Source of the DNA: an uncultured Clostridia bacterium
Lineage (GTDB): Bacteria > Bacillota > Clostridia > TANB77 > CAG-508
Direction: 5' to 3'
Assembly: GCA_944388035.1 (NCBI GenBank)
Contig: CALXHF010000006.1
Span: 15,128 to 79,127, forward strand
DNA: 64,000 bases
In this document: positions 20,993-29,348 of the stretch, piece after piece
How the letters are laid out: each line of letters opens with the position of its first letter
Numbering within the stretch: position 1 is the stretch's first letter
Notes under the pieces: generated by a model
Told to the model about the DNA's origin: nothing
What the model saw: the letters and a program-made list of their open reading frames with translations, nothing else
Databases searched by the model: none
Program-made: the position numbers and the translations under genes

Positions 20993-23089
20993 TTATCTAG
21001 GAATTTCAGCTCTAGAAGTTTCAGCATCATATGGTGAACCAAATCCTATTAAATCATTATCAAGATTTCCTATAATTACACCAAGCTCTGGACTTGCAGC
21101 ATGTATCATAAGTCCGTCGTGATAATAAATTGATGCGTGCCTTGAACCATAAGTTTCGTGATTTTCAATATATGCTGGATCTCCCCAAAACATTAAATCA
21201 CCCGCTTTAATCTGTGAAAGATCTGTTTTTATTCCATTTTTATTTTTTATGTATGGATATTGCCAACTCATATCTTGGTCATCATCTCTACTACCTTCTT
21301 TAAACCTTATTCCTGTTGCATTTGTTACACACCAAGCAGTTAAGCCGTCGCAAACAAAACCTGTTGGAGCTTTAAGTAGTTCATAATCACACCCGACTCT
21401 TGATAGAGCAAGCAGTAATGTACGCTGTCTTTGGTCTCCTATAAGTTCTGGGATTGGTGCATCTTTTCCATGCCCCCCTGGCAAATCATCAAAAGTTGGT
21501 AAATGCCAAGAAGCTCTACCTTCACTATCAAAATCGTATAGTGAACCATATTGCGCTGGGTCTTGCATCATTGGATCTATTCTTGTTGTATTTTTTATAA
21601 GTTCTCCTGTTTGTGGGTCATAACAATACCAATTTCCATTATTATTTACCCATCCTACAATAAATGTTGTTTCTGTTATTTTCCATAATTGTGATTTACT
21701 GTTACTTCCTGTATTTTGAAGTATTTTTGCACCATTATCTGAACTTTCATTTTCTATATCTATATATTTTCCTGAGTTTACATTTTTAAATGAGATATAT
21801 CCTCCATCTTTAATTTCAGGTATCCATCTTTGACAAGAAGCTCCATTATCTTCCCACTGTCTTATGATCGCTCCGTCTTCCCTACTTCCTTCTTCTACAT
21901 CAAATGTTAAATTATGCATTGTATATATAACATATCCATCATCTTTTTTCTCTATTTTAAATTTCTGATTATTATTTTGAGTCCTATCATATATTATAAT
22001 ATTAGTTCCCCAATCAGAACCTGAATTTTCTAAATCAAGAACTTTACCAGATGAAGATGCTATTTCATACCATCCATTTTTTATTAATTGTACTTCATTT
22101 ACAATAAATCTTTGTGATTCTTGATTGCTATTCTTTTCCCATACTTGTATTTTTGTTCCATTCTCATTTCCGTTCCAATTAACATCTAAATAAAGTCCGC
22201 TTTCTTTATTTTTAAATGTTATTCCATTATTCCATTCTATAATCCATACATTATTATCACTAATTGGATCCAAACTATCTCCAAGTTGAACAACTTTTGA
22301 ACCGTTTACTGTTCCCATTTCCGTTAGCCAGCCACCTGACGAAGCTGTTCTTATTCTTACTTCATTTTCACTAACTTTATGAATTTCAAAACATTGTGAT
22401 AAACTTTGATTTTCTTCCCATAATTGTATTTGTGTCTTATCTTCAGAAGTATTATTATTTACATCAAAAACCATATTATGATTTGTTTCTTTTTTTATAG
22501 AAACTATTTTCTCTTCTAAAAGACTTGTTTTTTCTATATTAAATCTTTGTGAATAACTATTTGTATATGTATATTGTTGTATGCTTGTTCCTTCTTGCAT
22601 TATTCCGTTTTCTACATCTAATGCTAATCCAGAACACTCTGCTATAAAATTATAGGACCCATCTATATTTTTACGTATCTTCCATCTTTGTGCTGATGTA
22701 TCATTATTTCCATATTGTCTAATTTTTGCCCCTATTTCTTTAGAGCCATCTGGCACATCTAATACTTTTGCTGATTTTACGTTATATATTTTATAATATC
22801 CATTTCCTGCATACTCTATATAAAACTTCTGATTTTCTGTATTATTTTTTGTCCATAGTTGTAAATTTGCTCCATCTTCTAAAGAGCCATCTTTTATATC
22901 TAACACACAATTAGTATTTTGATAGGAACTTATATAATAAGCTCCATCTTCTATAACTCTAGACATATAAATTGATAATTTTCCATTTTCGTTATCTACT
23001 GCATATGATTTTAAGCAAAAACAAATTAATGCAAAAACAAAAATTAATAGTATTAAACTTATCTTACACAAAAACTTATTTTTATACAT
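20993..23089 (-). CDS. Secreted multi-ricin-type (beta-trefoil) lectin repeat protein with C-terminal NlpC/P60 (C40) peptidoglycan hydrolase domain
   Basis: Signal peptide. Repeated Q-x-W/F subrepeats (QRWKI, QRFNI, QCFEI, QRFIV, QKFKI, QRWIP, QLWKI). One cell-wall-binding-type repeat GWVNNNGNWYCYDPQTGE. C-terminal CDGLTAW...GDLMFWG...HASIYY. Confidence 0.8.
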   Translation of the reverse strand: MYKNKFLCKISLILLIFVFALICFCLKSYAVDNENGKLSIYMSRVIEDGAYYISSYQNTNCVLDIKDGSLEDGANLQLWTKNNTENQKFYIEYAGNGYYKIYNVKSAKVLDVPDGSKEIGAKIRQYGNNDTSAQRWKIRKNIDGSYNFIAECSGLALDVENGIMQEGTSIQQYTYTNSYSQRFNIEKTSLLEEKIVSIKKETNHNMVFDVNNNTSEDKTQIQLWEENQSLSQCFEIHKVSENEVRIRTASSGGWLTEMGTVNGSKVVQLGDSLDPISDNNVWIIEWNNGITFKNKESGLYLDVNWNGNENGTKIQVWEKNSNQESQRFIVNEVQLIKNGWYEIASSSGKVLDLENSGSDWGTNIIIYDRTQNNNQKFKIEKKDDGYVIYTMHNLTFDVEEGSREDGAIIRQWEDNGASCQRWIPEIKDGGYISFKNVNSGKYIDIENESSDNGAKILQNTGSNSKSQLWKITETTFIVGWVNNNGNWYCYDPQTGELIKNTTRIDPMMQDPAQYGSLYDFDSEGRASWHLPTFDDLPGGHGKDAPIPELIGDQRQRTLLLALSRVGCDYELLKAPTGFVCDGLTAWCVTNATGIRFKEGSRDDDQDMSWQYPYIKNKNGIKTDLSQIKAGDLMFWGDPAYIENHETYGSRHASIYYHDGLMIHAASPELGVIIGNLDNDLIGFGSPYDAETSRAEIPR

Positions 23090-23116
23090 CTCTATGTTTC
23101 CTCACTTTAATTCTTT

Positions 23117-25426
23117 TTATTTTTTAAAAAATCTACTATATTTATCGTATTTTTTATATTTAAGATATAAAATTATGCTTATAACTACTGCTGTTACTAT
23201 AAATATTGCTAATGTAATCTTCCCAGCAAAAGGTAAATCCATTATTGCAGATCCAAGATTTCCAGTCCAATTATTTTCTTCTCCATTAATTTGATCATTT
23301 TGGTTGTTCTCTCCTGGTTTTTCTTCTTCATTAAAACTTGTTACTGAAACTGATACTTCTGTTATGTTTCCTGCTAAATCTGTCACACTAATAACATCTT
23401 TTTGGTTTTCTGAATATGTTTTTGTTAATGTCTTTTTATCTTCTGATAATGTCCAACCTTCAACTTCTTGTAATTCCTCATTTGAAATAATACTTACAAT
23501 TACTTTACCATCTTTTTCTTCATACTCAACTTTTGCTTGTGGTTTTTCTTTATCTATATTTTCAACTTTTACTTCAATTTCTGTTTCATTTCCTGCTAAA
23601 TCTTGTACTTTTAATGTAGATACTTCATTTTCAAAATAATATTTACTAATTGTTTTTCCATCTGATGAAATTTCCCATCCATCTGGTTTTTGTAATTGCT
23701 CATTTGATTTTATTTCTACTTTTACTTTTTCATTAGTTAATTCTTGTGTATTATAAGATATTTCTAAAATTGGTTTTTCTTTGTCTATATTATTAATATT
23801 TATAATTGCTGTTGTCTTATTTCCATAAATATCTTCTAATTCTATATTTTCTTCTACATTTTGATTATATGTCTTAGTTAATGTCATTTTATCTTCTGAT
23901 AATGTCCATCCTTCTAATTCTTTCATCTCTCTATTTGATGTAATTGTAACTGTCACTTCTCCATTTGTTGGTTCTATTGTAGAATAACTAACCTCACATT
24001 CTGGAGAATCATTTATTATGTTATTTACAATTATTTCTACTGGTATTGCATTTGAAAGAGAATCATATATAGTTACTGTTTCTGTAGTGTTTTGGTAATA
24101 AGTTTTTGATAACACTTTTTTATCTTCAGATAAAGTCCATCCTTCTAATTCTTGTAATTCTCTATCCGAAATAATTGAAACAGTTACTTCTTTTGCTCCT
24201 AAATCACTATTACTATATTCAACATTTACATTTGCAACTGAACTATCAATATTTGTAATAGTTATTTGCTGGTTTATTTTTTCTCCACCTATGCTAGTTA
24301 TTGTAACAATTCCATCTGTATTTGCAAAAAATTCTCTTTGCATATATTTTTTATCTTCAGATAAAGTCCATCCATTTATTGGTTTCATTTCTTTATTTGC
24401 TGAAATAGTTACAACAACACCTTCTTTTGTTGTTTCTGTTGTGCTGTATTCTATAGATACACTGAATTTTTCATATTGACCATTAGTTAATATTGGTTCG
24501 ACAAAAGTTGTTTTTTGTTCTTCATATGGTTTTATATTTGCAACAAGCATTTCTGAAAAAGTTGTATCTCCTATTGTACTATCATTTCCTACTAAGAAAT
24601 AATTATTAGTATCTTCTGCGTTGTCTAAATCTGGATCAGCACCAAACCATTTTTCATCTAGATTTACTCCTGCCCATTGATGCATCTTAGTTTCATCACC
24701 ATTTATCAAGTCTCCTCTGATGATAGCAGAATTTATTCCTTTTGCTCTACACAATAATACAAATAGATTTGATTCTCCTTCATCGCTTGCTTTGTTATTC
24801 ATTAAAGCTCCATATGCTGTTTGTTGTATTTCAGAACCATCTAAGTCTGTATTTGAAACATTTGTTATTACATAATTATATATATTTTGTAATATTTCAT
24901 AATTATCTTCTCCTGTTATTGAATCTGACACTTCTTGTAATTTTGTCTGAAAAGCTTCCTTTTCCGCACTCTCAGGTAATATATATAATTCCATATCAAC
25001 ACCTGTTATTTCTACTGTATCACTTCCCATATTATAGCTTACTTCAGGAGTAATTGTTCCATCTATACAATTATATCTTATCCAATAATATTCTGGATGG
25101 TCTAATATAAAAGCAGAAAAAGCATCATATATTTCTCCTCTTATACTATTTTCATATAATTCATATAATTTATCTTCTTGATTTTCTGAATTTATACCTT
25201 CTACTTCATATGATAAATCTACATTTACCCTAAATTTTCCAGTTGCTTCTGTATCATTTAAAATACCTTCATAAACACTTTTAGATAAATCAGATGTTAG
25301 TTGATTATAATAAAATTCACTGCCTTCTACATTATCAACAGCTTCAACAATACTCGGAAATATCGATATTAGTGTTGTGGTAATAAAAATAACAATACAT
25401 ATAGAACTTAAAAATTTTCTTTTCAC
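23117..25426 (-). CDS. Surface protein: transglutaminase-like core, about 5-6 tandem Ig-like repeats, and a C-terminal LPFAG/TM/basic tail
   Basis: GTG 25426 follows AGGAGG. Signal peptide. LLCRAKGINSAIIRGD..HQWAGV..DPD. Repeats carry GWTLSEDKK..L.KTY...V.D..GN...NID. C-terminal sequence is DLPFAGKITLAIFIVTAVVISIILYLKYKKYDKY. Confidence 0.75.
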   Translation of the reverse strand: MKRKFLSSICIVIFITTTLISIFPSIVEAVDNVEGSEFYYNQLTSDLSKSVYEGILNDTEATGKFRVNVDLSYEVEGINSENQEDKLYELYENSIRGEIYDAFSAFILDHPEYYWIRYNCIDGTITPEVSYNMGSDTVEITGVDMELYILPESAEKEAFQTKLQEVSDSITGEDNYEILQNIYNYVITNVSNTDLDGSEIQQTAYGALMNNKASDEGESNLFVLLCRAKGINSAIIRGDLINGDETKMHQWAGVNLDEKWFGADPDLDNAEDTNNYFLVGNDSTIGDTTFSEMLVANIKPYEEQKTTFVEPILTNGQYEKFSVSIEYSTTETTKEGVVVTISANKEMKPINGWTLSEDKKYMQREFFANTDGIVTITSIGGEKINQQITITNIDSSVANVNVEYSNSDLGAKEVTVSIISDRELQELEGWTLSEDKKVLSKTYYQNTTETVTIYDSLSNAIPVEIIVNNIINDSPECEVSYSTIEPTNGEVTVTITSNREMKELEGWTLSEDKMTLTKTYNQNVEENIELEDIYGNKTTAIININNIDKEKPILEISYNTQELTNEKVKVEIKSNEQLQKPDGWEISSDGKTISKYYFENEVSTLKVQDLAGNETEIEVKVENIDKEKPQAKVEYEEKDGKVIVSIISNEELQEVEGWTLSEDKKTLTKTYSENQKDVISVTDLAGNITEVSVSVTSFNEEEKPGENNQNDQINGEENNWTGNLGSAIMDLPFAGKITLAIFIVTAVVISIILYLKYKKYDKYSRFFKK

Positions 25427-25459
25427 TTTATTTCTTCCTCCTTTTTATCCTCTCCTTTA

Positions 25460-25488
25460 ATGATATAATATTTTTCTTCTATTTTCAA
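25460..25488 (-). promoter_or_regulatory. Putative sigma-A promoter of the surface-protein operon
   Basis: Minus strand reads TTGAAA (25488-25483), 17 nt, TATCAT (25465-25460). Confidence 0.45.
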
Positions 25489-25502
25489 TCTTTAAAGACA
25501 TT

Positions 25503-25563
25503 TGTAACTCATTTGTAATTTGTTTGTATTTTATTTGTAATATATTTGTAATATAATTGTAAC
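25503..25563. promoter_or_regulatory. Six tandem 11-bp-phased TGTWAH-type hexamers (WalR/OmpR-family-like operator array)
   Basis: TGTAAC 25503, TGTAAT 25514, TGTATT 25525, TGTAAT 25536, TGTAAT 25547, TGTAAC 25558. Spacing is exactly 11 bp throughout. Lies immediately upstream of the -35 above. Confidence 0.6.
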
Positions 25564-25592
25564 ATTTTATAATGTCTTTTTATCTTCCTTCA

Positions 25593-26741
25593 CTACAAAT
25601 ATATAATTGGACGAAATGAGCTATATAAATCAGATAAAGCTATAGTTCCTGCATAACGACTATCTGCTAGAAAACTTTTATCATTTACTCCTCCTCCTCT
25701 AAGAGTACAACAATATTCTTGATTTTTAGAAGTTTCAGTAAACCACTCCCAGCAATTACTTGCTATATCATAAATATTACATTTTACATCATTTGTTGTT
25801 CCTTTGCTTGCAATACTTCCTGTGTTTAAACTAGCTTGCTGTGAATATCTTGTATCTCCTGAACATTTTTGAATAAATACTAAAATTGTATCCCAAGCAT
25901 AACTATTTACTAAATCACTTGTAAAATCTTCTGTTTCTCCATACATATTTCTAGACAAAGTTGCCGCTTGATTTTGCGTCACATAATTATAAACAAATTT
26001 ATCTGCCTTTGTTACTACTTGATTATTATCATTTGTTGAATTATTTCTTGTACTTTCAGCTACTCCATCTCTTGCTTCATATCTTCCTAAATAAAAACCT
26101 TTTGCCTCTCCATCTGCTACTTTTTTCTTAAATATTTCTATATTTCTTGCTGTTATGTTTTTATATATATTGCTAGAAATCTCTTCATAAATATCGCCAT
26201 TATTTTTCTTAATTTCCTTTTCTCCCATAGATGTTTCATTTCCTGTAATTTCTGCAAATGTATATCTATCTAAATTTATTGTTACATCTCCTTTACTTGT
26301 CTTTATAGTTCCTACTGGTATCCATACAAATTGGCTTCCTTTTGTTATATCATCTTTTGCTGATACATCTTCTATTATTATTCCTTCTTCTACATTATCA
26401 TTTGTATTTACTACTTTAAAACCTTTTGGAACTTCTATTTTATTTCCTAAACTATCATTTACTACTATATTATTTTCTTGGTTTCCGTCTGCTTTTGGTA
26501 ATGTATTTAGTTCTTCTAAAGTTTCATCATATATTTGTTTCATTTCATCATCTGATACATTATACTCTTCATATATTTTTCTTATTTCATCTTCTTGTGA
26601 GCTTAATTTGTTCATCATTGAAAAGTATGCTACAAATATTACACCTAAAACAACTAACATTGTTGATAATACAAATATTGTTAATGAACCTTTTTCTTTC
26701 TTTAATATTCTCTTCCCCCCTTTTTCTACTCTTCCTTTCAT
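25593..26741 (-). CDS. FGE-sulfatase (SUMF1/formylglycine-generating-enzyme-like) domain protein with a pilin-like/TM N-terminus
   Basis: C-terminal IYDIASNCWEWFTE...TLRGGG...SSFRPIIYL matches the FGE-sulfatase core. N-terminal KKEKG|SLTIFVLSTMLVVLGVIFV resembles a class III signal peptide. Confidence 0.7.
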   Translation of the reverse strand: MKGRVEKGGKRILKKEKGSLTIFVLSTMLVVLGVIFVAYFSMMNKLSSQEDEIRKIYEEYNVSDDEMKQIYDETLEELNTLPKADGNQENNIVVNDSLGNKIEVPKGFKVVNTNDNVEEGIIIEDVSAKDDITKGSQFVWIPVGTIKTSKGDVTINLDRYTFAEITGNETSMGEKEIKKNNGDIYEEISSNIYKNITARNIEIFKKKVADGEAKGFYLGRYEARDGVAESTRNNSTNDNNQVVTKADKFVYNYVTQNQAATLSRNMYGETEDFTSDLVNSYAWDTILVFIQKCSGDTRYSQQASLNTGSIASKGTTNDVKCNIYDIASNCWEWFTETSKNQEYCCTLRGGGVNDKSFLADSRYAGTIALSDLYSSFRPIIYL

Positions 26742-26853
26742 TTTAATATTAAATATTTATATAAATTTATACTTAATCTCATTTTATTTTTCTATGTGAT
26801 TATTATAAGTTATTAGCAATTATTTTGTAAGCATTTTTAGGTACATATTAAAT

Positions 26854-26892
26854 TGTTTTTTAATTGTAAAATATTTGTAACAAAATTGTTAA
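26854..26892 (+). promoter_or_regulatory. Four 11-bp-phased TGTWAH-like hexamers abutting the RHH-gene RBS
   Basis: TGTTTT 26854, TGTAAA 26865, TGTAAC 26876, TGTTAA 26887. The RHH ATG is at 26911. Confidence 0.5.
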
Positions 26893-26910
26893 TCAAAAAA
26901 AGGAGTTATT

Positions 26911-27129
26911 ATGAAAAAATTAAAAATACCAAAAAATCATAGTGGAGTAAGTAAAACTCTAAGATTACCTGAAAATTTAGTAGAAGATATTCAAATCTTA
27001 TCTGATATGAAAAATATTTCATTTAACAAAACAGTTACAGAACTTTTAGAATTTTCTTTAAAAAATTTAGACGAAGAAGATAAAAAACTAATTGAAGAAA
27101 AACGTAAGAATTTTTCAGAAATATTTTAA
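26911..27129 (+). CDS. Small ribbon-helix-helix (Arc/CopG-like) DNA-binding protein
   Basis: 72 aa. N-terminal KTLRLPENLVEDIQILSD fits a beta-strand/helix RHH pattern. RBS AAGGAG. Confidence 0.55.
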   Translation: MKKLKIPKNHSGVSKTLRLPENLVEDIQILSDMKNISFNKTVTELLEFSLKNLDEEDKKLIEEKRKNFSEIF

Positions 27130-27210
27130 TGATAATTGAAAATAAAAATAAGGTGTTTTGTTAATAAAAACGCCTTATTTTTGTTTAATTTACATATATG
27201 TATATATCTT

Positions 27211-28117
27211 TTATAAAACCGCTCCAATTATTCCAGCTTCATTTCCAAGTACTGCTGTTTGTATATTTAATTCTTTTCTTTTATTAAATAACATATTTTT
27301 GGAAATAATTTCTTTTTTTAAATCATCTAATAAAACATCTTCAAAATATACAAAACTTCCACCTATTCCAATTACTTCTGGTTCAAATATATTTATTAAA
27401 TTTGCTAATCCAATAGCTAAATATTCTATATATTCTTGTTTTATTTTATTTATTATTTTATAATTTTCATCTTCTTTTTTTATATTTTTAATTAAAGCAA
27501 GTAATTCTTTTCCAGAAAAATTTTCATCATAACCTAATGCTTTTCTTAAGTTATTCTTAAAAGCTTTCATAGAAGCATATTTTTCAAAACAACCTTTTCT
27601 TCCACAATTACACTCTAAGCCATCTTTTTCTACTACCATATGTCCTATTTCACAACCTGGTAAATCTCCTGTATCTAATAACTTGTTATTAATAATAACA
27701 GCTCCGTCCTATTCCTGTTCCTAGTGTTAAAAATAAAATTCTATTATAAGCTTTTAAAGCACCATATTTACTTTCTGCAATTGCTGCTGATTTTGCGTCA
27801 TTTTTTATTTTTATTGGTAAATCTATTTTTTTATTTAAAACATCTACTATTTTATAATCTTTAAGTCCTAAATTTACAGATTTAATTACTTCTGTTTTAT
27901 TGACAGTTCCCGGTATTGCTATTCCTATTTCGTCTATTTCATAATCTTTTCTATATTTTTCTACAGTCTCAAAAATAGTTTCTTCTATTACTTTTTTAAC
28001 TTCTGTTGTTATTATTCCTTTTAATCTCTTTTCCGTTTTTTCAAGGATTTTACCATTTTTATCAATTACTCCAATTGCTATATGGCTTCCACCTAAATCT
28101 ATTCCTATTTTTTCCAT
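27211..28117 (-). CDS. ROK-family sugar kinase (glucokinase-like); needs a +1 frame change at in-frame CGG (plus 27704-27706)
   Basis: ORFs 27689..28141 (MEKIGIDLGGSHIA...LTLGTGIG) and 27211..27639 (...CNCGRKGCFEKYAS) join as GTGIG|GAVIINNKLLDTGDLPGCEIGHMVVEKDGLECNCGRKGCFE, which is the ROK signature. ATG 28117 follows AGAGG. Confidence 0.85.
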
Positions 28118-28151
28118 AACTACCTCTTTTCTAAATAACATTTATTAAAGT

Positions 28152-28331: not shown

Positions 28332-29348
28332 TTATCTTTCTTCTCCTTCTTCTTTTTCTCCTCTTTCTGTTTCTATCTCTTCTAGTAATTTTCTTGCTTC
28401 ATCTTCTTTTCCAGATAATCTTTCGTATTCTTGTCTTAATGCCTCTAATTCTGAAATTTTAGGTCCTAAGCCTAATTCTACTCTTATACTATTTAAAATC
28501 TCTCTAATTTTATCTCTTGTTTCAATAACACCAACATTTCTATTTGCTTTTTCTTCCATTTCTTCATCTGTAAGCATTATATCATCATCGTCATCTCTAT
28601 ATAATAATCTATCAATTTCATCAAAATCAATACTTTCTTCTGTAAATCTTTTTCTCCACTCTGCACATAAAATTCTTGCTTCTTTTATTTTAGCTCTTAA
28701 TCTTTTCCTTAATTCTTTATCTTGTAATTTACTTACTTTTGCACTTAAAATCTTTATTTCTTTTTCTGCCTCTATTAATTCTTCTCCTTCTAATGGATAA
28801 TATGATAATTTTTTTGTTGCTTCTTTTTCTGATATAAAAGATGCAATATTACCTTTTACTCTTTGTAGTAAAGCATTATTACTTCTTAATCCAACTGGGC
28901 TATATTCTACTAATTGTAAAGTTTTTGCTTGATTATTTTTATCTAATAACACATCTATTCCATTTGTCCAAGTAGTCTCTCCTAAAAAACATAAATCACT
29001 TAAAACTAAATTTTCATATCCTGATATACTTTCTTCTCTTTTTATTCTTTCCATTAATTCACTATATGATATAAATTCTACGTCATCATATCTTGTTAAA
29101 CTTTCTTTACTTATTTTTCCTTCACTTATCATTCTTTCTACTTTCTGTTGTATTTTTCCTTTTTTTAATTTACTCCCACTTTCCAAGCAAAGTGTTTTTC
29201 CTATTGTTTCATTAAAAAACTTAACAGCTATATCTTCTATTCTTGTAAAATCCGGATGTACTACTGTAGCAATATTAGTTGTTTTTAACATATTTTTTAC
29301 TTTTTCATATGCTTCTTTATTATATATATCAACAATATCTAATTCCAT
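28332..29348 (-). CDS. Hypothetical protein, last large gene of the pilus transcription unit
   Basis: 338-aa ORF with a C-terminal coiled coil and an acidic tail. No motif recognised. Confidence 0.5.
   Translation of the reverse strand: MELDIVDIYNKEAYEKVKNMLKTTNIATVVHPDFTRIEDIAVKFFNETIGKTLCLESGSKLKKGKIQQKVERMISEGKISKESLTRYDDVEFISYSELMERIKREESISGYENLVLSDLCFLGETTWTNGIDVLLDKNNQAKTLQLVEYSPVGLRSNNALLQRVKGNIASFISEKEATKKLSYYPLEGEELIEAEKEIKILSAKVSKLQDKELRKRLRAKIKEARILCAEWRKRFTEESIDFDEIDRLLYRDDDDDIMLTDEEMEEKANRNVGVIETRDKIREILNSIRVELGLGPKISELEALRQEYERLSGKEDEARKLLEEIETERGEKEEGEER

Follow-up and report, generated by a model that had tools for sequence, protein, structure and literature searches.

Direct repeats that lie one helical turn apart in a fixed orientation are, among the known families of DNA-binding proteins, most typical of OmpR/PhoB regulators. 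The PhoP boxes of Bacillus subtilis are TTHACA repeats with an 11-bp periodicity, four or more of which are needed; the ArcA sites of Escherichia coli consist of two to five direct repeats spaced 11 bp apart; OmpR has its sites F1-F3. Arrays of short units are also read by ribbon-helix-helix proteins. For instance, the heptads of the omega repressor (pSM19035) are contiguous and occur in both orientations, ParR reads the ten 11-bp iterons of parC in plasmid R1, and Arc dimers sit 11 bp apart on their operator. As well, AmrZ, which is Arc-like, is required by Pseudomonas for twitching that depends on type IV pili. WalRK, in turn, has been reported throughout the Firmicutes, including Clostridioides difficile, in which the WalR motif TGTWAH-N5-TGTWAH was used for site prediction and gave 29 intergenic matches genome-wide, two matches belonging to the D,L-endopeptidase gene cd630_27680 (10.1101/2022.04.01.486798).

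The stretch of DNA analysed here (64 kb, hereafter the window) has 26% G+C, carries 65 of its 74 accepted ORFs on the minus strand and comes from a lineage of uncultured spore-forming gut Clostridia known from metagenome-assembled genomes. It possesses an array of six 11-bp units on the minus strand (array 1, 25498-25563), which read GTTACAATTAT ATTACAAATAT ATTACAAATAA AATACAAACAA ATTACAAATGA GTTACAAATGT on the gene strand. Direct reading of the plus strand gave the hexamers TGTAAC (25503), TGTAAT (25514), TGTATT (25525), TGTAAT (25536), TGTAAT (25547) and TGTAAC (25558), which occupy 25503-25563 with a period of exactly 11 bp throughout, just as the initial annotation had described. That five of the six fit TGTWAH was likewise borne out, the exception being TGTATT with its mismatch at position 5, and three exact matches to TGTWAH-N5-TGTWAH lie inside the array. 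Tandem Repeats Finder placed the array at 25500-25562 (period 11, 5.7 copies, 84% matches, score 77).

The promoter TTGAAA-17-TATCAT (25460-25488, minus strand), predicted to be of the sigma-A type, had been placed about 15 bp from the array and was recovered by a consensus scan, the gap between array 1 and the -35 hexamer TTGAAA (25488-25483) being 14 nt. This -35 hexamer lies 20 bp downstream of the start of the proximal unit, and the promoter is followed by the ribosome-binding site AAAGGAGG and a GTG start at 25426. No known RNA family was found in 25000-27400 at E<=1. A promoter-like sequence on the plus strand, TTGTAA-16-TATAAT (25546-25573), is also present inside array 1 and would read antisense into the neighbouring 382-aa gene; it is probably incidental, because each array unit resembles a -35 hexamer, and by eye it is not kept in the related species of locus L096.

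The genes downstream are those of a surface protein and an NlpC/P60 enzyme, as first annotated. The first operon gene (23117-25426, minus strand) encodes a secreted transglutaminase-core protein of 769 aa, in which a signal peptide was found; its C-terminus, read by eye, resembles an LPxTG anchor (LPFAG, a transmembrane stretch and a basic tail), and the NCBIfam LPXTG match is weak (E 0.034). The second (20993-23089, minus strand) encodes 698 aa, with RicinB lectin repeats and a peptidoglycan endopeptidase domain of the NlpC/P60 type. In two contigs of the same species (L001 and L010, 4440-6506), an extra RicinB-YkuD (L,D-transpeptidase) gene lies between the transglutaminase-like and NlpC/P60 genes; it is missing from the window strain (23089-23117) and present in the related species of loci L097, L098 and L100. 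On the other side of array 1 lies a gene for a 382-aa protein with a prepilin-like N-terminus (25593-26741, minus strand), whose stop codon is 30 nt before the array. This gene varies among strains and encodes 267-274 aa in several of them (L001, L004, L005, L009 and L010), with 273 or 274 aa in some.

Ten contigs of the same species are almost identical to the window in this intergenic region, except for the number of whole units in the array. Six units are present in the window and in L001-3, L006-8 and L010, five in L004, and four in L005 and L009; the promoter is identical in all these alleles and the proximal offset is constant at 20 bp. Such whole-unit polymorphism within one species (6, 5 or 4) is shared with contingency loci, and together with the very high A+T content of the region it would suit a repeat that has no dedicated reader at all, being either an unstable 11-mer that acts by DNA shape (through curvature or in the manner of an UP element) or a contingency repeat. 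Unlike in contingency loci, the repeats here lie neither between -35 and -10 nor in a reading frame. Moreover, the -35/-10 spacing and the 20-bp proximal offset are the same with four, five or six units, and a spacing-based on/off switch is therefore excluded; the promoter-proximal geometry is indifferent to gain or loss of units, which sets the arrays apart from contingency loci.

The array is also present in other species. Orthologues of the 769-aa protein occur in four other uncultured Clostridia species with 85%, 78%, 62% and 47% identity, in neighbourhoods that differ (downstream of dnaJ, of a ROK kinase gene or of mecA). These operons carry 5, 4, 3 and 4 ATTACAA-type units, respectively, in 11-bp phasing, and the distance from the start of the proximal unit to the -35 hexamer is 20, 20, 21 and 20 bp. 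The promoters (L096, L098, L100 and L222) keep TTGAAA or TTGCAA, a 17-nt spacer and TAnnAT, while the spacers between units and the remaining intergenic sequence have diverged, unlike the units and the promoter. In the relatives, the operon combines the transglutaminase-like gene with genes for a RicinB-YkuD L,D-transpeptidase and for a RicinB-NlpC/P60 enzyme; the 47% relative has the transglutaminase-like gene and one RicinB gene only. Judged by this sequence comparison, the array is a genuine cis-regulatory element under selection and conserved across species. The initial annotation had counted three dimer sites in register, and this part did not hold up as a conserved feature, because arrays of three and five units are common; such counts fit simple dimer sites poorly.

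Within the window, the motif TGTWAH-N5-TGTWAH occurs nine times against 1.74 expected, and none of 100 dinucleotide shuffles reached nine matches. A weight matrix was built from 36 units of the window and related loci, and it recognized exactly four phased arrays in the window, while Markov shuffles averaged 0.17 arrays. Three of these four had supplied units to the matrix; the array at 26860-26881 is independent of it. All four lie in non-coding DNA, which makes up 11% of the window (P about 1.6e-4). ATTACAA stands on the gene strand in all four.

The unit core is a heptamer, ATTACAA on the gene strand (TTGTAAT on the plus strand), followed by four free bases. Across the 36 units, each of positions 1-7 has an information content of 0.7-2.5 bits, as against 0.14-0.34 bits for the four spacer positions, which argues for selection on a 7-bp recognition core and against recent tandem duplication. 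This bears again on the possibility that the repeats have no dedicated reader, since tandem 11-mers with TTACAA are common in unrelated metagenomes: a search for TTACAA repeated four times with a spacing of 11 bp returned at least 120 stretches from marine, freshwater and other samples. These are mostly perfect or near-perfect 11-mer repeats, in which the spacer is copied with the core, whereas in the arrays described here the core is kept and the spacers are free. Among the matches listed (at least 120), none of the stretches encodes relatives of the window proteins. In addition, the heptamer, its orientation and the 19-21 bp offset are kept across species with diverged flanks and at four unrelated promoters. 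We therefore regard a repeat without dedicated reader as highly improbable, and the repeats as very likely to be a functional transcription-factor array.

The other three arrays lie upstream of genes of several kinds. Array 2 (26853-26892, minus strand) is made up of two strong units (26860-26881: GTTACAAATAT TTTACAATTAA) and two weak ones, all four in phase. It is situated in a divergent region and oriented to the 382-aa pilin-like gene, and the -10/+1 region of a gene for a 72-aa protein overlaps with it; arrays equivalent to it were found in 15 other species. The predicted promoter of the pilin-like gene is CTTACA-18-TATAAT (26802-26831, minus strand), which is TTGCAA-17-TATAAT in relatives. 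Array 3 (39343-39375, minus strand), recovered with the weight matrix, reads ATTACAATTCT ATTACATTTGT ATTACGATTAC, and its proximal unit starts 21 bp before TTGACT-16-TAAAAT (39332-39305), upstream of a gene for a 541-aa PilM/N/O-like protein (37564-39189, minus strand). A type IV pilus cluster begins with this gene and continues to pilB/T/C at 29458-33582; the PilM-like call was made from the N-terminus by eye and from gene position, and no Pfam match was obtained. Array 4 (61168-61189, minus strand), which was also recovered with the matrix and reads ATTACAATTTA ATTACATTTAT, lies 19 bp before TTGAAA-17-TATAAT (61159-61131), upstream of a gene (60288-61076) for a cytoplasmic 262-aa protein without function assignment.

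Arrays 3 and 4 have counterparts in other genomes as well. The region upstream of the pilM-like gene was compared in four contigs (L225-L228), which hold two orthologous proteins (81-84% identity) and three distinct upstream sequences; each of these has three units, of which the proximal one is a conserved variant (ATTACGR), at the offset seen in the window. The layout of the 262-aa gene array (two units, 19 bp) also occurs in a distant species (L054), which makes two species in all. In other species, arrays were also found before a gene for a lectin-bearing cysteine peptidase and before pilin-like genes paired with the 72-aa gene. All the arrays listed consist of direct repeats in which ATTACAA is read in the direction of the regulated gene, and the start of the proximal unit is 19-21 bp from the -35 hexamer in all 14 entries for transglutaminase-like, pilM and 262-aa promoters.

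The same architecture thus stands before the pilus operon and the 262-aa gene and within the region shared by the pilin-like and 72-aa genes, and it therefore appears to be a cell-surface regulon motif with activator-like geometry. By virtue of the shared motif, the type IV pilus operon, the pilin-like surface proteins and the cell-wall operon are assigned to one putative cell-surface regulon.

Several side observations were made at these loci. The distal end of array 4 coincides with a perfect 14-bp palindrome, TTGTAATATTACAA (61183-61196), that overlaps an RNase H stop codon; inverted pairs of the array half-site also occur in L060 (TTGTAA-N5-TTACAA) and L076. A 338-aa protein encoded after pilC (28332-29348) has a highly acidic, coiled-coil-like C-terminus and is without family assignment; its position after pilC is kept in L227 (39% identity). 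The ROK-family kinase gene is found as two ORFs (27211-27639 and 27689-28141) in the window and in ten of ten same-species contigs, while an intact gene (302 aa) is present in the related species of L098, and the window copy is probably either a split gene or a pseudogene that has become fixed.

As for the mechanism, each 11-bp unit would show the heptamer ATTACAA on one face of the helix, pointing at the promoter, so that three to six protein subunits could line up cooperatively along the array. The promoter-proximal subunit would be centred near -53, with about 14 bp left before the -35 hexamer, a geometry that would suit a class-I-type activator or a modulator touching RNA polymerase from upstream. 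Bound in this way, the array would drive or tune the operon of the transglutaminase-like and NlpC/P60 genes, and of the L,D-transpeptidase gene in relatives. Gain or loss of whole units among strains (6, 5 or 4) would alter the number of docking sites and not the promoter geometry. The promoters may do without an activator, because they have good -35 and -10 hexamers.

The units are all direct, with ATTACAA toward the gene, which points to an asymmetric head-to-tail binder. Taken together, one-turn direct repeats, uniform orientation, fixed offset and variable distal units suggest a protein that binds head to tail on one face of the helix and contacts the polymerase. The arrays share with OmpR/PhoB direct-repeat sites in general their spacing of 10-11 bp, their single orientation and their fixed position relative to the promoter, and a regulator of this family would bind head to tail and oligomerise along the repeats. 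Similar to the multi-repeat sites of PhoP, ArcA and OmpR, they consist of a variable number of direct repeats on one face with strict orientation to the promoter, and they would share oligomerisation from a promoter-proximal anchor if the proposal holds. Promoters activated by PhoP or PhoB differ in that repeats there usually replace the -35 hexamer, whereas here a good -35 is kept 14 nt away. The best explanation at hand, which we hold tentatively, is an upstream array for a sequence-specific factor, likeliest of the OmpR/PhoB family with a WalR-like half-site specificity, and the reader is quite possibly an OmpR/PhoB-type response regulator.

The likeness to WalR boxes goes further. The half-site of the array units is the WalR optimum TGTAAT, the direct-repeat spacing of 11 bp is the same, and by eye 30 of the 36 collected units fit the WalR consensus as DTWACA (the reverse complement of TGTWAH). 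As with WalR (YycF/VicR) boxes, the sites precede the promoter of genes for NlpC/P60-type and other enzymes of the cell wall in a Bacillota host, the operon under array 1 encoding cell-wall-active enzymes (NlpC/P60, and YkuD in relatives). The differences are that three to six hexamers stand in register, often in odd number, against the one pair of WalR; that one more conserved T extends the unit to the heptamer TTGTAAT; and that a type IV pilus operon and pilin-like genes have such arrays too. The putative targets (pilus operon, pilin-like genes, lectin-peptidase and the cytoplasmic 262-aa protein) are thus broader than the classical WalR hydrolase regulon. Spo0A boxes, LytTR repeats, BlaI/CopY boxes, Rex sites and TnrA/GlnR half-sites were set aside, these being inverted repeats or of another core or period (LytTR repeats have a period of about 21 bp, and BlaI/CopY boxes read TACAnnTGTA).

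No OmpR/PhoB effector domain was found by tblastn (E<=0.1, four effector-domain queries) in the window and 108 loci of the lineage, a redundant sample of 1.54 Mb, which is small enough that a single-copy walRK could easily be missed. None of the receiver domains seen in the lineage DNA is fused to a winged-helix domain of the OmpR/PhoB type; one belongs to an HD-GYP protein. The latter, a response regulator with HD-GYP output (the c-di-GMP phosphodiesterase type), lies at 19667-20194 of L031, where it is cut by the locus end, and is also present in L035; pili under cyclic-di-GMP control are known in other clostridia. The proposal of the initial annotation that the operon is under WalR-type or other response-regulator control accordingly stands in part: the conserved cis-element, its WalR-consensus units and the cell-wall enzymes speak for it, and the broader targets and the negative domain search of the redundant 1.54 Mb stand on the other side. 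A true WalR orthologue as the array reader is, in our estimate, rather doubtful.

The same absence could mean that the reader is neither of the OmpR/PhoB type nor the ribbon-helix-helix protein encoded nearby, but another factor, such as a lineage-specific surface-gene regulator encoded elsewhere. No response regulator that carries a DNA-binding domain was found in the sampled DNA, and the content of the regulon (pilus, pilin-like proteins, lectin-peptidase and cell-wall enzymes) matches no characterised regulon. A literature search for TGTAAT direct repeats in Clostridium or for ribbon-helix-helix regulators of clostridial pili returned nothing directly relevant, and no paper in it tied such a motif to clostridial regulators. 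However, this is an argument from absence; among known families it is OmpR/PhoB regulators that most typically use oriented one-turn direct repeats, and the units match TGTWAH very closely. We consider such a factor unlikely.

The window also carries a candidate local regulator, which the initial annotation had left out: a gene (26911-27129, plus strand) 1.3 kb away, with repeats in its own control region, encodes a 72-aa protein related to Arc. It belongs to an unnamed family of more than 1000 sequence clusters, and its relatives in the genome collection are from uncultured Clostridia or Bacillota assemblies throughout (best 80 of 139 confirmed matches). Compared with the PDB, the family profile matched the Arc repressor (E=6e-4), in register over the DNA-reading strand and the N-x-S-x-N turn, and then AmrZ and Mnt; remote homologues matched the Pfam families Arc, RHH_1, HicB and CopG just below threshold. 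Comparisons of the profile with single Arc and CopG sequences were insignificant. A first model, built on a shallow alignment, was a single long helix without fold matches, and the fold was resolved after remote homologues had been added. The resulting AlphaFold model (pLDDT 85) has a ribbon, two helices and a C-terminal helix, and its top Foldseek matches are ribbon-helix-helix proteins only, including AmrZ at 30% identity. As modelled, the 72-aa protein is an Arc/AmrZ-like ribbon-helix-helix protein. Its origin as a plasmid-partition protein or antitoxin is unsupported, because no relatives were found in phage or plasmid collections.

Encoded beside the arrays, this protein might itself read them: the beta-ribbon of one dimer would enter the major groove at each heptamer, and dimers 11 bp apart would touch. 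Its own gene would be repressed via array 2 (at -10/+1), and the pilin-like gene, the pilus operon and the transglutaminase/P60 operon would be controlled as well. Besides its fold and family, which are supported by the Arc match, the AlphaFold model and Foldseek, the protein is encoded near arrays 1 and 2 and adjoining the pilus cluster, and at least two phased units overlap the -10/+1 region in 20 of 75 distinct promoters of the family, in many contexts. The arrays resemble ribbon-helix-helix operator arrays in their short heptamer core, variable unit number and 11-bp register (as in parC and Arc), and in that a gene of Arc/AmrZ-like type adjoins them and has units in its own control region. 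Unlike the omega heptads, the units are spaced and all direct, and, array 2 excepted, they lie upstream of the -35 hexamer and not over the promoter, whereas ribbon-helix-helix proteins are mostly repressors. A two-fold symmetric dimer would not require the uniform direct orientation, and the operon arrays persist in relatives in which the 72-aa gene is not adjacent. Moreover, the arrays in the region shared by the 72-aa and pilin-like genes point to the pilin-like gene, as the regulon-wide rule predicts.

The promoters of the 72-aa family weigh further on this point. The DNA-reading strand SKTLRLPEN is invariant in the family, yet at least two phased units are present in only 20 of the 75 promoters, and the repeats are thus not a family-wide conserved autoregulatory operator of the gene. 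The most conserved element upstream of the family is another sequence, the box TAGGTACATAT (26838-26848, plus strand; family consensus AGGTGCATATTT; called here the GGTGCAT or AGGTGCAT box), which is present in 71 of the 75 promoters, occurs once in the window and is absent from the other promoters. In five species the box is palindromic (ATGCACC-N8-GGTGCAT). From its distribution, this box is a better candidate than the arrays for the protein's own operator. It is thus unlikely, on balance, that the 72-aa protein reads the arrays. We give equally little credence to the general form of this idea, in which a lineage-specific factor, with the 72-aa protein as the most attractive candidate, has the arrays as its non-WalR operator, with two to six dimers polymerised on one face. 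If true, the 72-aa polymer would be an upstream activator or modulator of the pilus and surface regulon, and gain or loss of units would tune expression.

In the examined loci, the 72-aa gene and its opposite-strand neighbour diverge in every case. The 72-aa gene forms a conserved cassette (26742-27129 in the window; L011-L095) with a partner that usually has a prepilin-like N-terminus (KGITLIALVITIIVLLILAG...) and is about 70 aa long at the shortest and more than 3600 aa at the longest. Over 70 assemblies of uncultured Clostridia have the cassette, in many genomic contexts. Between the two genes lie TTGCAA-17-TATAAT, for the divergent gene, and the box AGGTGCATATTT.

Whichever protein reads them, arrays of a known kind, namely tandem direct-repeat sites for a regulator, here mark a putative cell-surface and pilus regulon that has not been described previously, in an uncultured lineage. 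This lineage of low-G+C gut Clostridia is known from metagenomes only. The arrays provide a testable regulatory grammar, consisting of the heptamer ATTACAA, an 11-bp register and a gap of 19-21 bp to the -35 hexamer, and two candidate regulators, an OmpR/PhoB-type response regulator and the 72-aa protein, can be named for binding them. The natural alleles with four, five and six units are a ready series for relating site number to promoter output. Finally, genome-wide scanning with this grammar could define the surface-structure programme of the lineage.
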